A stretch of 64,000 bases of DNA from Eledone cirrhosa (taxonomy: Eukaryota), in assembly GCA_964016885.1 (NCBI GenBank), contig OZ024749.1, forward strand, positions 26,350,001 to 26,414,000, read 5' to 3'. The notes beneath the pieces were generated by a model, which worked only from the letters and a program-made list of their open reading frames with translations, had not been told where the DNA came from and made no database searches. The position numbers were made by a program, and so were the translations under genes. Shown piece by piece: positions 16,509 through 51,556 of this stretch; the first letter of the stretch is position 1, and each line of letters begins with the position of its first letter.

Positions 16509-17411
16509 ATATATATATATATATATATATATATATATATATATATATTTTTCTCTTCGTCCTTCTTTTTAACTGTCCTCAACATTTTCACTACCAAATC
16601 AACTTTTTAAATGGAAGTTGCACTGTTCTAGGTATGTCAAATTTATTTATAAAACGGTTTATATATTGTATTTTGTCTGAGGAAGGCATACCATATTTTT
16701 AATATGGTATCCCTGAAATATATATAATGAAATAAATATGGTTTTATAAATATAGTTTCCATTTGTTTAATATCGTAAACCTACTCCAAAACTTGTGGAG
16801 TGCTTTTATATCAGTTATAAAATATTTACTCGTTGTAACCCTACAATTTTAAATAAAACTTTTGCATATATATTTTTTTTTTTTTTTTTTTTTTTTTTCG
16901 AAAATTCTGAATATGAGTTGTGTTCACTAGATAAATCTGCTATGAGTAATCGACCCCATCATGAAACTCGAAGTACCAAGTAAAACATACTCTTAGTTTC
17001 CATATCCAGGGCTAATTCAGTCATATTACAATTAAACATCAACTATACATAGTTCATACATACACAAACACACGTGTATATATATATATATATATATATA
17101 TATATATATATATATATATATTTATACGCATATATATATGTGTATATATATATATATATACATATATATATATATATATATATAATTATATATATATAAG
17201 TTAAAGTGTACATCTACATATGTATACGGAAGTATTAGTATGCATATAAATACACACATGTATACATATGTACATGTACTCAGCTTTTCACTAGACACTT
17301 TACAGTGAGTGTCAGCTAGTCTGTATGTAACCACACAGACGGACCGGGTTTTAGAGTCATACGGGTTTTCAAGGAAACACATTTCCTCTATTCTCCAGAG
17401 GGCCAGACAGG

Positions 17412-17456
17412 AATATTGGACTAGTTTCGATGTTATTACATCTCATCAGCAATATT
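17412..17456 (-). ncRNA. Type I hammerhead ribozyme (family A, inverted copy)
   Basis: Reverse complement of 17629-17673. Confidence 0.9.
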
Positions 17457-17628
17457 TACCCACGAAATTTAATTTCGTTTCGTTATTTGTTTTTATCGTT
17501 TCCGCTGAACCGGTGCGTACAATGACTCACGTTCTATGCAAATTAGTCTACCCACTACTAATTTTCATAGAAAAAGCATATAACGATATGTGCTTTTACA
17601 ATTCTCCAGAGAAGCCGGAAGATTGGTA

Positions 17629-17673
17629 AATATTGCTGATGAGATGTAATAACATCGAAACTAGTCCAATATT
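17629..17673 (+). ncRNA. Type I hammerhead ribozyme (family A)
   Basis: aatattg CTGATGA gatgt-aata-acatc GAAA ctag TC caatatt. This gives a 7-bp stem I, a 5-bp stem II, a palindromic mini stem III and a GUC cleavage site. Confidence 0.92.
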
Positions 17674-18097
17674 CCTGTCTGGCCCTCTGGAGAATAGAGG
17701 AAATGTGTTTCCTTGAAAACCCGTATGACTCTAAAACCCGGTCCGTCTGTGTGGTTACATACAGACTAGCTGACACTCACTGTAAAGTGTCTAGTGAAAA
17801 GCTGAGTACATGTACATATGTATACATGTGTGTATTTATATGCATACTAATACTTCCGTATACATATGTAGATGTACACTTTAACTTAATTGTTTAAGCG
17901 TCAGTCATACAAAAGTGAGTTAGAAGCGAAACGAAATTTAATTTCGTTTCGTTATTTGTTTTTATCGTTTCCGCTGAACCGGTGCGTACAATGACTCACG
18001 TTCTATGCAAATTAGTCTACCCACTACTAATTTTCATAGAAAAAGCATATAACGATATGTGCTTTTACAATTCTCCAGAGAAGCCGGAAGATGGGTA

Positions 18098-18142
18098 AAT
18101 ATTGCTGATGAGATGTAATAACATCGAAACTAGTCCAATATT
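18098..18142 (+). ncRNA. Type I hammerhead ribozyme (family A)
   Basis: Same motif, +469 bp. Confidence 0.92.
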
Positions 18143-46976: not shown

Positions 46977-47178
46977 GGGGATTTCTTTCTTCGTTTCTGT
47001 GCCTTTCCTTTCTTCTATCCTACGCCATTTTGTTTGTGTGTGGGTTGCGGTGCTCAGTTTGCGCATGCGCCACATCCGGGTGTCTGTGTGTGTTTGTGTT
47101 CATTTTTCTATTTTTCTATTTATATTTGTTTGTTTATTTATTTATTTATTGTTGGTTGGTTGTTTGGAACTCTCCGTT

Positions 47179-49562
47179 TGGAACTCTCCGTTTTATAACC
47201 ACTCCGATAAATCATTCGACCTACGACGAGTCCACGCCACGACTTTGCCATTTAACAAACGCACGCAGTTGCCGTCGCAGGTCGATGAACAAACAGAAGC
47301 ACAATTTAGTATAGCTAAATCCGAACTTAGAAATATTATAGAACAGTATAGCAAGAAGCATAATAGAATAGAGGCCCAGCAACTGGGAGAAGAATCTGCA
47401 AATGGCTTGCGTAAGCTCATGCAGCGCTCGCGTAATGGAGAGATAGCATGCTTTCCAACAGACAAGTCTGGCAGAATGTCGGTTGACAGCCTGCCAAACT
47501 ACATCCAGGCAATGCAACCCCACATCACTAACACAAGAGAGGTAACACCACAGGAGCATGAGGATAGAGAAAAAACCCTCAATGCCCATATGGTGATGTG
47601 GACAAATATAATGCAGCCCAACAAAAGGACTGCCAACAACTTCCAGGCCTGGAACAATGACGTGCCGGCGTTGTATGGGCTTCGAAAAGACCATAAAACG
47701 GGCTGGGACCCTGTCGCGGGACCACCAACACGGCCAGTCTGTGGGGCTAACATTGCTAGTAACTACAGACTGTCCTACTTCCTCTCCCTGATCATACGCC
47801 CCATCATTGAGATGTCCCCAGATGTGTGTGACAGCACGGAGGACCTCCTCAGCAGAATCGGCGCGGGTAACCGATCTGGGGACCTAACAAACTGCATAAT
47901 AGGCAGTATGGATGTTGTGTCCCTGTATCCATCTATTGACGTGGATTTTGCTGTGGAGAAATGCGTCGAAATGATCAGCGAGAGCAAGGTTGAGTTCCGT
48001 GGGATTGATACCAGTGAGCTGGGACTTCTACTTAAGCTTACCCATAGTAATAGTTACCTAGACACTTATGACCTTAGCAACCTGTGCCCTACAAGACCAG
48101 CAAGAGGCAGACCACCTACCATTACCTCAATGGCCAAGAAAACCCACACAGATAGATGGAACGGGTGGACCAGAGCCATACGGACACCCGAAAACCACGA
48201 TGAACTGAAGAAAATGATTGCACATGCGGTAGGGGCCAGCATAAATTAACCCTTAAGGAACATATGTTCAAATTTAATGGTAAAACATATGCCCAAGAGG
48301 AAGGAGCAGCCATTGGTGTTAGCATTGCAGGCGACATAGCTAACTTGTTCATGGTATGGTGGGACAGTAGACTTAAACAAAAACTTAAAGAACAATTAGA
48401 AGACAGCTTAACCCTGATAATGTACTCCCGCTACGTAGATGATATAAACATCGTAGTTAAGACACCCCCACTAAAGAACAGTCAGGAACCAGAGAAAAAC
48501 ACAATGGAAAGCATCCAGCAAATAGCAAACTCCATCCACCAGAGCATTAGAGTTACTGTAGACTACCCAAGTAGACACCCCAACCATCGATTACCTGTAC
48601 TAGACACAGAGCTCTGGTTAGATACTATTAACAACCAAAAACAAATCCTCCATTCCCATTATGCCAAACCCATGACTTCCAAACATCTGATCCACCGAAA
48701 CTCGGCCATTTCGGACCATACCAAAATCAACATACTGATTGCGGATTTGATACGGGTGATGAGAAATGTGTCCCGCATGTGCAACCCCGAAGAACTAGAG
48801 AGACACATACAACACTTCATCCACCGTATGCAGTTCTCTGGCTACAATCAGAGAGATAGAATCAGAGTGTATAAAGGAGCCAGAACCAAATGGGAAAAAA
48901 TGGTAAATAATGACATAAATGGGACCTGCCCCTTGTATAGGAGCAAATTTTGGAATAGAATAGAAAGAACTAAGAACAAGGCCAATAGAATAAACTCATG
49001 GTATGATAGCAATAAATACCAGAGTGTAATGTTCATCAATACAACCCCTAGAGGCGAACTAGCCTACAAATTTAGAAGGGCCCTAAAGAAACATAATCTC
49101 AATATTAAGATAGTAGAAAGACCTGGTACCTCCGTAAAAACACTTATTAGCAAGACATACCCGTTCCAAAGACCCTCATGTATAGATAAGAAATGTATAA
49201 CCTGTAAAATAAGACCCCATATTAACTGTAAAACTAGAAATGTAGTATATAGCATAAGATGTACTGAAGGACAATGTAGAAACAAAAATATAGTGTACAT
49301 AGGTGAGACAGCTCGTAGTATAGGGGAACGAATAAATGAACACTGGCGAGACCTCCAAGATAGTAAAGAATCATCTGTGCTCTACCAACATGCTAAGATA
49401 GAACACAGGGGTAAATTAGAGAGCATAGAAATAAAAATAGAATCCACACACAAGAAAGACGCAATGTTTAGGCAAATTACAGAGGCAGTAAGCATAAAAG
49501 AATTAAAACCAAAATTAAATAGAAAATATGAGTGGAACAGCAACATCACAACTTACAATTAA
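47179..49562 (+). pseudogene. PLE RT + GIY-YIG, with a 1-bp frameshift near 48245
   Basis: ORFs 46999-48249 and 48264-49562. RT and endonuclease are in frame here (KGARTKWEKMVNND). Confidence 0.88.
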
Positions 49563-49837
49563 GGACAAAATGAAAACACACACACACATAGAACAAACAA
49601 CTTACAATTGAAAACACACACAAAATGAAAACACACACACACATAGAACAAACAACCAACCAACAATAAATAAATAAATAAACAAACAAATATAAATAGA
49701 AAAATAGAAAAATGAACACAAACACACACAGACACCCGGATGTGGCGCATGCGCAAACTGAGCACGCAACCCACACACAAACAAAATGGCGTAGGATAGA
49801 AGAAAGGAAAGGCACAGAAACGAAGAAAGAAATCCCC

Positions 49838-49882
49838 AGTCACTGAAGAGGTCACAGAGTGTGTGACGAAAGAACTATGACT
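49838..49882 (+). ncRNA. Minimal hammerhead ribozyme in PLE pLTR
   Basis: agtcaCTGAAGAggtcacagagtgtgtgacGAAAgaacTAtgact. Confidence 0.75.
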
Positions 49883-51146
49883 ATATATATATATAAACAA
49901 CTATCTGGTTGTGGAACCAACCAACCAACCAGAAATTTATAAATTTGTAAATTTATAAATATATATTAAATTAAATTGAAGTGAAAGCAACTGGTGCGTG
50001 TGTTTCTTATTGGCAACATGACCCTCCCAAAGTATAACAATATCGGTTTCAACACACGATTTCAGATAAAGAATCTTGCTAAACAAATTCAGAAACGAAA
50101 TATATATATATATTTATATATATATTTATATATATATATTTATATATATATATATATTTATATATATATATTTATATATATATATATATATATTTATATA
50201 TATATATATATCTATATATATATATTTATATATATATATATATATATATTTATATATATATATATATATATTTATATATATATATATATATATTTATATA
50301 TATATATATATATATTTATATATATATATATATATATTTATATATATATAAATATATATTTATATATATATATATATATATTTATATATATATATATATA
50401 TTTATATATATATATATATATATATTTATATATATATAAATATATATATATTTATATATATATATATATTTATATATATATATATATATATATATATTTA
50501 TATATATATATATATATATATATATTTATATTTATATATATATATATATATATATTTATATATATATATATTTATATTTATATATATATATATTTATATA
50601 TATATATATATTTATATATATATATATATTTATATATATATATTTATATATATATATATATATATATATATATATTTATATATATATATTTATATATATA
50701 TATATATATATATATATATATATATATATATATATATATATATATATATATATATATTTATATATATATATTTATATATATATATTTATATATATATATT
50801 TATATATATATATTTATATATATATATTTATATATATATATTTATATATATATATTTATATATATATTTATATATATATATATATATATATATATATATA
50901 TATATTTATATATATATTTATATATATATATTTATATATATATTTATATATATATATATATATATATATTTATATATATATATATTTATATATATATTTA
51001 TATATATATATATTTATATATATATTTATATATATATATATTTATATATATATATTTATATATATATATTTATATATATATATTTATATATATATATATA
51101 TATATATTTATATATATATATTTATATATATATATTTATATATATA

Positions 51147-51556
51147 TAAATTGAAACAAAATGAAAACGAAATTTCATTTCTCACTCTTAGTATGGCACT
51201 TACTTAAATGTAAGTATGCATGTATACGTACATACATATATGTATACAGACGTACAGTAGCATGCACATATATATATATATATACATATATATATACATA
51301 TGCATACAGGTACACATACATATATGCACGTATCGGTTTAGCGGCGCTAACGTCGCTTTGTTCGTTTGTAAACAAACTGAACAGCCTGAATTTATGCCAT
51401 ACGGTGTTAAGGCAACCACGTCACCTTTTTGTTCAACACTGACACAGGAACGATGTACTAGTTTCAAGCTTGTTAGCTATCATCAGCACCGTTTACCCAT
51501 CTGCCAGATAGTTGAACGTTCGAAAGTATATACTTTCCTTATGAAAATTAACGGCT
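51147..51556 (-). mobile_element. Family C retrozyme-like copy truncated by the gap
   Basis: Mirror of 41066-41475. Hammerhead at 51449-51493. Confidence 0.87.

Follow-up and report, generated by a model that had tools for sequence, protein, structure and literature searches.

How repeats that encode no protein and carry a hammerhead ribozyme enter new sites in an animal genome is the question raised by a 64,000-nt stretch of Eledone cirrhosa DNA (contig OZ024749.1 of assembly GCA_964016885.1, positions 26,350,001 to 26,414,000; hereafter, the window). Positions 17197–51556 of the window hold arrays of three families of such repeats (A, B, and C), which by their sequence features are retrozymes, and a Penelope-like element stands beside them. 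For retrozymes, the papers cited below propose a circular template and, from co-occurrence and homology only, a Penelope helper. We found that the arms of these arrays end at two fixed internal sites in (TA)n DNA, that arms joined head to head nearly always use one site each, and that the Penelope family of the window follows the same rule. The first-pass annotation of the window contained neither the fixed internal 3′ ends and the two-armed architecture nor the Penelope-like element and its three hammerheads.

A script search of 17197–51556 recovered exactly 16 cores of the form CTGAnGA-N14-GAAACTAGTH (four in A, five in B, and seven in C). The bare CTGANGA motif was counted 44 times, compared with 7.2 expected. 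The units are 469 nt long in A, 422, 422, 417, and 420 nt in B, and 465 and 454 nt in C, with a GC content of 37–38%. They are homologous end to end, with global identities of 60% (A–B), 61% (A–C), and 76% (B–C), and units inside one array are 98.8–100% identical. The longest ATG frames on tripled units span only 51–99 aa, and the units are non-coding. They have no long terminal repeat (LTR) arrangement, although primer-binding sites and polypurine tracts were not searched for. The order of the core elements (CUGANGA, GAAA, and NUH) is that of type I in all 16 motifs, and cleavage is predicted after GUC in A (position 17666, at the end of the core at 17636..17666 on the + strand) and after GUA in B and C. 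In an alignment of the three window types with three variants from other loci, six sequences that are kin to one another, 93.9% of the cells in stem I, stem II, and the distal helix were paired, against 25–46% in slid controls, and compensatory double changes were seen at 8 of the 19 hammerhead base pairs. Helix III has 2 bp, invariant and palindromic. When it is paired between copies, the predicted duplex amounts to −6.2 to −6.8 kcal/mol, and a weak palindromic helix III is an arrangement reported to favour dimeric cleavage (PMC4209133).

No Rfam family reached its gathering score with the window hammerheads. The closest model, Hammerhead_HH9, gave 33.1 bits on unit A against a gathering score of 52 (E = 5.6e-7) and an E-value of 0.029 on unit C, with no match on unit B; we attribute the low score to the short helix III. 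Folded as circles, the three monomers had minimum free energies with z-scores of −10.4, −9.9, and −9.2 (30 shuffles each), and the predicted circular folds of A, B, and C share one common branched shape. The octamer ATGCAAAT is present in A and C approximately 120–130 nt upstream of the cut, has the counterpart ATGCATAT in B, and sits inside a predicted helix. Newt satellite 2 presumably has a promoter of the snRNA (small nuclear RNA) type, on which our literature search found no paper, and we assign the octamer no promoter function. Judged by these features, the repeats are real non-coding tandem units with a predicted self-cutting RNA motif, and the units belong to the known class of non-LTR retrozymes, within which A, B, and C are new families.

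The first-pass annotation had already proposed 16 hammerhead copies in three related families, covariation of stem I, stem II, and the distal extension, the cuts after 17666 and after GUA, a palindromic mini stem III suited to dimeric cleavage, and type I retrozyme repeats, and all of these proposals were reproduced here. The hammerhead-model search that it suggested ended below threshold. Its description of the monomers as relatively long did not hold, since 417–469 nt lies within the 51–972 bp given by Li et al. (2026; 10.64898/2026.07.22.740005) and compares with 150–450 bp in Cervera and de la Pena (2020; PMC7229834), as far as the available text of both papers goes. Its overall interpretation thus stands with respect to the class but not with respect to the relative length.

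The repeats are abundant. Over the 3.0 Gb of the genome, the exact core pattern was counted 38,123 times, sister variants included, compared with 0 for the reversed control. The full B unit as the query gave 337 matches in its own genome. Family B carries about 0.06% singleton substitutions, which, together with the near identity of units within arrays, supports a very young amplification, as judged from divergence and as the annotation had suggested. Part of unit A matched contigs of three sequencing runs of unspecified kind at 85–100% identity, and found no match in the contigs of one run that we presumed, by a guess at its type, to be of RNA. Two other loci (L075:275–1205, + strand, and L058:8687–9322) contain one more family of hammerhead repeats, spaced at 310 nt and with another palindromic stem III (ACGCGT).

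The insertion anatomy was surveyed in 37 A, 20 B, and 20 C stretches taken from the best matches (one of them, L107, was without C), with the window itself left out, as were arms below 150 nt in A, 100 nt in B, and 200 nt in C. The 3′ ends fell at two homologous internal sites in 116 of the 125 arms (59/60 in A, 32/32 in B, and 25/33 in C). Sites 1 and 2 are at unit positions 299 and 222–231 in A, 275 and 215–219 in B, and 303–307 and 250–254 in C. Their spacing is 56–75 nt (56–57 in B and C, 70–75 in A), and they are 145–250 nt from the ribozyme cut. Directly past the 3′ end, TA-rich sequence was present in 115 of the 125 arms. Among 45 adjacent head-to-head pairs, 40 combined site 1 with site 2, one used site 1 twice, none used site 2 twice, and four had one odd end; mixed ends were thus found in 40 of the 41 pairs with both ends at canonical sites (binomial p about 2e-11). 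A check on selection with the first 20 loci along one contig (C1) gave 26 arm rows, of which 22 ended at the sites, two ended elsewhere, and two were unresolved. The 5′ ends had no fixed position: 2 of 125 were no more than 6 nt from the cut site, where 3.3 would be expected. This lack of a 5′-end excess at the cut speaks against reverse transcription of cut linear monomers.

The skews of the two flanks were opposite in 26 of 36 comparisons and the same in 10, indicating that the (TA) tract pre-dated the insertion. The addition of TA tracts by the reverse transcriptase (RT) in a telomerase-like manner was also considered, and is disfavoured because the flanks behave as one interrupted tract. 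Most retrozyme flanks are pure TA and uninformative with respect to target duplication. The informative ones showed duplications of about 10–14 bp, at the retrozyme loci L092 (12 bp, the clearest) and L048 (about 12 bp) and at the Penelope loci L109, L113, and L127; for non-LTR retrozymes, target duplications are taken to exceed 4 bp when present, and those found here do. With head-to-head arms, a tail on one arm, (TA)n targets, a fixed 3′ end, and variable 5′ truncation, the units act like non-autonomous Penelope-like elements.

An alternative account of the arrays is that they are satellites derived from solo Penelope terminal repeats, amplified by unequal crossover as proposed by Li et al. 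(2026) and dispersed passively. Higher-order duplications do exist in long arrays (L067, L103, and L148–149), and C copies of the window were duplicated at the DNA level. This account nevertheless leaves the fixed 3′ ends, random 5′ ends, mixed-end rule, and target duplications on many chromosomes without explanation, and the ends avoid the long internal TA-rich stretch of the unit, where TA-mediated deletion would place them. We consider it very improbable and largely refuted as the main route; unequal crossover stays as a secondary process.

The Penelope-like element at 42426–50103 has the same two-armed form. Its long arm (42426..47166, − strand, period 4285 nt) carries hammerheads at 46971 and 42686 and ends 226 nt past the cut, followed by (TA)n, and its inverted, 5′-truncated arm (47179..50103, + strand) carries a third hammerhead at 49843 and has the same 3′ end. 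The element encodes an RT plus, at the C terminus, a GIY-YIG endonuclease with a CX4CxxC linker; the Pfam matches to RVT_1 (E = 2.6e-4) and GIY-YIG (E = 1.5e-4) were both just short of the cut-offs. Both arms are frameshifted, the frame of the long arm being broken by a 7-nt duplication, and an uninterrupted 1279-codon RT–endonuclease frame of the same family is present at another locus (L118). Among the top homologues of the protein, just one is named; it comes from Octopus vulgaris and is 65% identical. Its RT, GIY-YIG domain, linker, and hammerhead in the pseudo-LTR (pLTR) identify it, at the level of predicted features, as an endonuclease-positive (EN+) Penelope-like element, and we provisionally assigned it to the Neptune/Nematis type by a single character, the linker motif of PMC8557442. 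Elsewhere in the window, a 198-codon frame at 60622–61218 (− strand) resembles a GIY-YIG-like endonuclease with CxCX5C and is possibly a fragment of a Hydra-type Penelope; it had no significant Pfam match.

At 22 other loci of this Penelope family, all 39 arms ended 226 or 166 nt past their own cut, in (TA)n, and all 14 pairs were mixed, with the two sites 60 nt apart. The retrozymes and the Penelope family therefore share the same mixed-end rule with near-equal spacing (60 nt, compared with 56–57 nt in B and C and 70–75 nt in A). This common two-site rule provides insertion-level evidence for mobilisation of the Penelope type, and we regard a Penelope-type, two-site step as highly probable. 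Mobilisation of the units in trans by a Penelope protein would follow from the shared anatomy.

The enzyme might instead be supplied by a long interspersed nuclear element (LINE) acting by twin priming, or the inverted arms might be assembly artefacts. An intact APE–RT LINE is indeed present in the window (3563–7177), and mirror duplications lie near an assembly gap there. No poly(A) or shared LINE 3′ tail was seen at the arms, however; both arms face outward in sense and end at internal sites, and the Penelope family itself follows the two-site rule. Fold-back of reads would not yield two fixed, asymmetric ends. We give either explanation very little probability.

The arms also bear on how the second DNA end is used. 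In the 40 mixed retrozyme pairs, the site-2 arm reached further 5′ in 21, the site-1 arm in 16, and the two were equal in three; the site-2 arm reached further in 5 of the 14 Penelope pairs. Since neither arm is consistently longer, both appear to have been primed independently. In an older model for the inverted repeats and tails of Penelope (PMC3846280, PMC8557442), priming is single, and the second arm would be a fold-back or self-primed copy of the first complementary DNA (cDNA), from which the endonuclease trims about 60 nt. In its favour, the 5′ starts of the two arms were within 30 nt on the unit in 9 of the 40 mixed pairs, slightly over the roughly 13% expected. Against it stand the 21 retrozyme and five Penelope pairs in which the site-2 arm extends further 5′, and in the Penelope pairs shorter than a unit (L109 and L124) neither arm contains the other. 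We therefore think fold-back copying improbable.

Initiation at two sites is known from a lizard Penelope. Its protein cuts and extends both target strands, prefers AT-rich DNA, and is predicted to form a dimer, and in vitro the element yields cDNA from two internal sites whose interval equals the genomic tail (PMC11167929). The anatomy found here corresponds to the prediction from that system, provided that the two DNA ends take one site each. The explanation that we favour, although we judge it no better than evenly balanced as a whole, is that a Penelope-like RT–endonuclease inserts the units by priming on both sides of a staggered cut, probably on circular monomer RNA. The array would be transcribed, and tandem hammerheads paired via the palindromic stem III would excise monomers that a host ligase would close, as in mussel, coral, and axolotl retrozymes (PMC7229834). 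A Penelope-type protein would then bind the RNA and nick both (TA)n strands about 10–14 bp apart, the target and the duplication being seen and the enzyme presumed. From one DNA end, cDNA synthesis would begin at site 1, and from the other at site 2, which is 56–75 nt upstream on the RNA. Each polymerase would cross the hammerhead junction repeatedly and stop at random, and the two cDNAs would be joined head to head, giving the anatomy observed. Older arrays may later be lengthened or homogenised at the DNA level, where block duplications were seen. Transcription, cleavage, ligation, and the identity of the helper are the steps that we infer.

The internal start sites, together with arms crossing many cut sites, mean that the template was continuous over the ribozyme junction, i.e., a circle or an uncleaved multimer. 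Given the Penelope-type two-site step, we lean slightly towards the circle. Long arms occur on both sides (each arm has 1.9 units or more in 19 of the 40 mixed retrozyme pairs), 19 of the 20 units in a 15+5-unit insertion are identical, and at L047 (4/4) and L066 (5/5) every unit in either arm carries the changes private to that locus. In addition, the 5′ ends are not piled at the cut site and the monomers fold as circles. The alternative is that the same enzyme and start sites act on a long uncleaved multimeric transcript, with the hammerhead and circles as by-products. Uncleaved RNA is the dominant substrate of the lizard element in vitro (PMC11167929), with a multimer, too, 5′ ends would not be expected to accumulate at the cut, and unit-confined variants, such as the one that L066 has in the final unit of each arm, fit a heterogeneous multimer. 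In contrast, the private variants fixed at L047 and L066 and the pair C55T+T80C, which in about 10 loci is all-or-none over the entire array, require a bottleneck of one unit. Arrays copied from a multimer would shrink every generation unless re-expanded, and the hammerhead stays intact with compensatory changes across families. We consider the uncleaved multimer unlikely as the template, though worth serious attention.

Several points weigh against the circular template favoured here and its Penelope helper. Self-cleavage and circle formation of the units are predictions only, the use of uncleaved RNA by the lizard element in vitro speaks against a circle, and only one of nine Xenopus retrozyme dimers was cleaved in vitro (10.64898/2026.07.22.740005). 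Variants confined to some units or one arm occur at L041, L048, L054, L061, L066, and L159, and at L066 G33C is found in the last unit of both arms, neither of which a monomer circle predicts. Array length can arise in DNA, as the block duplications in long arrays (L067 and L148–149) indicate. The terminal repeat of the window's Penelope family, the only one compared, has no clear homology with the units: local scores were 27–37 and shuffle maxima 35–49, and only C in the sense orientation marginally exceeded its shuffle maximum, in AT-rich sequence. Among the fetched loci, the only Penelope frames beside a retrozyme-type hammerhead belonged to the family of the window and to a 67% sister sharing its terminal repeat, besides a 55% fragment. 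Because no clear sequence relationship of the units to the Penelope family was found, the window's family is a candidate helper only. The sole site 1/site 1 pair (L031:3154–5775, 299/299) joins arms from two A subfamilies and, like the joined B and C arms of the window, may reflect either two RNAs at one break or later recombination. Three pairs in the window itself also violate the mixed-end rule (B+C, 275/307; C+C, 250/250; and Penelope, 226/226). Finally, most surveyed loci were best matches, in which young copies are over-represented.

Apart from these points, the 30-unit arm at L148–L149 (C1:5.738–5.752 Mb) shows variants recurring at 4- and 7-unit spacing; it ends at site 2 and its partner arm at site 1.

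A more specific and rather doubtful extension of the favoured explanation is that two Penelope RTs copy one circle at once, starting about 60 nt apart and rolling up to 10–15 turns each. As a part of it, the helper may read the shape of the RNA and not its sequence, since the retrozymes and the Penelope family match in end spacing and not in sequence. If true, the arrays would document, at the genomic level, double rolling-circle reverse transcription by an enzyme related to telomerase.

None of the window's arrays stops at the ribozyme cut; all end at internal positions that are homologous and have (TA)n after them, and their arms are head to head. The A array is a standard insertion with ends 222/299. 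Its inverted arm (17197..17462, − strand) covers unit positions 426–469 and then 1–222, contains the core 17449–17419, and ends at site 2, followed by (TA)n; its direct arm (17462..18903, + strand) consists of 3.07 units of 469 nt with cores at 17636, 18105, and 18574 and ends at site 1 (unit position 299), followed by (TA)n. The B and C arrays are held in a 15.6-kb (TA)n field (26853..42429), the target microsatellite. In this field, a short non-TA island at 34160–34230 may be the tail of an octopus short interspersed nuclear element. The B arm (30218..32272, − strand) has 4.9 units (422/422/417/420 nt), cores at 30523, 30945, 31367, 31784, and 32204, and its 3′ end at site 1 (position 275). 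Its 5′-most 50 nt or so are of the C type, and through this chimeric unit it is joined head to head with a C arm of 1.8 units (32269..33106, + strand; cores 32303 and 32768; site 1, position 307). Two RNAs at one break are a possible origin of the chimera, and recombination of a B arm with a C arm fits equally.

The other C arms are at 34809..35440 (− strand, core 35089, 3′ end at site 2, position 250), at 35439..35747 (+ strand, core 35466, also site 2), at 40571..41474 (+ strand, a short inverted remnant at 40571–40656 plus an arm of 1.76 units with cores 40682 and 41136, site 1), and at 51148..51556 (− strand, core 51486, site 1), which runs into the assembly gap. The C copies share one arm junction (at 35439 and 40655), and those at 41136 and 51486 share the private variant T120C. 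The last arm is a mirror copy of the 41136 unit: 41066–45358 and 51556–47179 are 97.4% identical over a C unit, about 1 kb of TA tract, and 2.9 kb of the Penelope element. The Penelope parts show four differences, and 14 bp are duplicated at the centre of the mirror. We attribute this mirror, as well as the three exceptions to the mixed-end rule in the window, to local DNA rearrangement or misassembly beside the gap. Accordingly, the 16 copies in the first-pass annotation are correct as a count but not as independent copies; the motifs represent about three to four insertion events plus local duplication.

Other features of the window were noted. By eye, two small head-to-head inverted pairs lie beside TA tracts at 21838–22110 and 22260–22450; the former has a hammerhead-like motif at 21919 (− strand), and one of its arms is about 70 nt longer, resembling the tail rule. 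A type I hammerhead-like motif at 58930–58985 (+ strand) has a stem I of ACTGC/GCAGT, a long stem II, and a TA-palindrome stem III, and lies immediately ahead of a TA tract. The LINE at 1605–7177 (+ strand) is an apparently intact two-frame element, with a 705-codon first frame and a 1204-codon frame (3563–7177) containing APE endonuclease, RT, and zf-RVT. A 418-codon 3′ fragment of another LINE (10538–11794, − strand) has zf-RVT and, by eye, is of the restriction-like endonuclease type.

Now that the start sites on the RNA, the target, and the length of the duplication are defined, as is a candidate helper whose frame is uninterrupted, the Penelope/circle route of retrozymes becomes directly testable. 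The survey also yields a clear statistical rule for the Penelope tail, namely that each start site accounts for one arm. This genome has at least 38,000 hammerhead motifs, whereas the main text of the 2026 Octopus vulgaris repeat annotation mentions no hammerhead, ribozyme, or retrozyme (PMC13282606).

Full-text literature searches, a scope that takes in few subscription papers, showed no retrozyme from a cephalopod, in agreement with the first reading of the window, and no two-site anatomy for retrozymes. We did not find the insertion anatomy described, and as far as this search reaches it is new for retrozymes. Cervera and de la Pena (2020; PMC7229834) define the class, demonstrate circles for the retrozymes of coral, mussel, and axolotl, and put forward Penelope-like elements as possible helpers; the words octopus, cephalopod, inverted, and target site have no occurrence in the main text of that paper, its supplement being outside this scope. 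The units share with those metazoan non-LTR retrozymes the tandem, low-GC, non-coding organisation, a length in the low hundreds of bases, a single type I hammerhead per unit, a weak palindromic helix III, and a strongly self-paired predicted circle. In units B and C, moreover, stem II has a U.U mismatch at its base, a feature also described for the axolotl HHR_Amex2. The two-armed insertions, fixed internal ends, and (TA)n targeting seen here are not described in the accessible text, and circles are demonstrated there but predicted from sequence here.

Li, Clavereau and Pollet (2026; 10.64898/2026.07.22.740005) argued that retrozymes originate from Penelope, on the grounds of co-occurrence and pLTR homology across 35 genomes that include no mollusc. 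Their system has in common with ours the co-occurrence with Penelope, the proposed hijack of its enzymes, and the range of unit length. It differs, as far as the available text goes, in concerning vertebrates, in amplification by local unequal crossover, and in offering no analysis of insertion ends, whereas we describe insertion anatomy and obtained a negative result for homology with the pLTR of the window's Penelope family.

Another close likeness is to EN+ Penelope-like elements of the Neptune/Nematis type (Craig 2021, PMC8557442; Arkhipova 2013, PMC3846280; Frangieh 2024, PMC11167929). Both occur as head-to-head inverted copies with a tail on one side only, insert in (TA)n or AT-rich DNA, and are truncated 5′. 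Both also have two internal sites at which the RT starts, with both strands cut and extended, and a hammerhead, which in those elements is in the terminal repeat. Penelope itself has inverted copies, a one-sided tail, and target duplications of 8–10 bp (PMC3846280, PMC8557442). Unlike these elements, the units encode no protein, their tail is 56–75 nt compared with 30–40 nt, and both arms are multi-unit (up to 10–15). The MRC1-type non-autonomous Chlamys elements (Craig 2021; PMC8557442) are likewise non-autonomous, of the Penelope type, and inserted in multiple head-to-tail copies; they differ in that they are from green algae, have no canonical hammerhead, and resemble their autonomous partner at the 3′ end. 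An active pair of autonomous and non-autonomous Penelope elements is known from an alga (PMC9977147).

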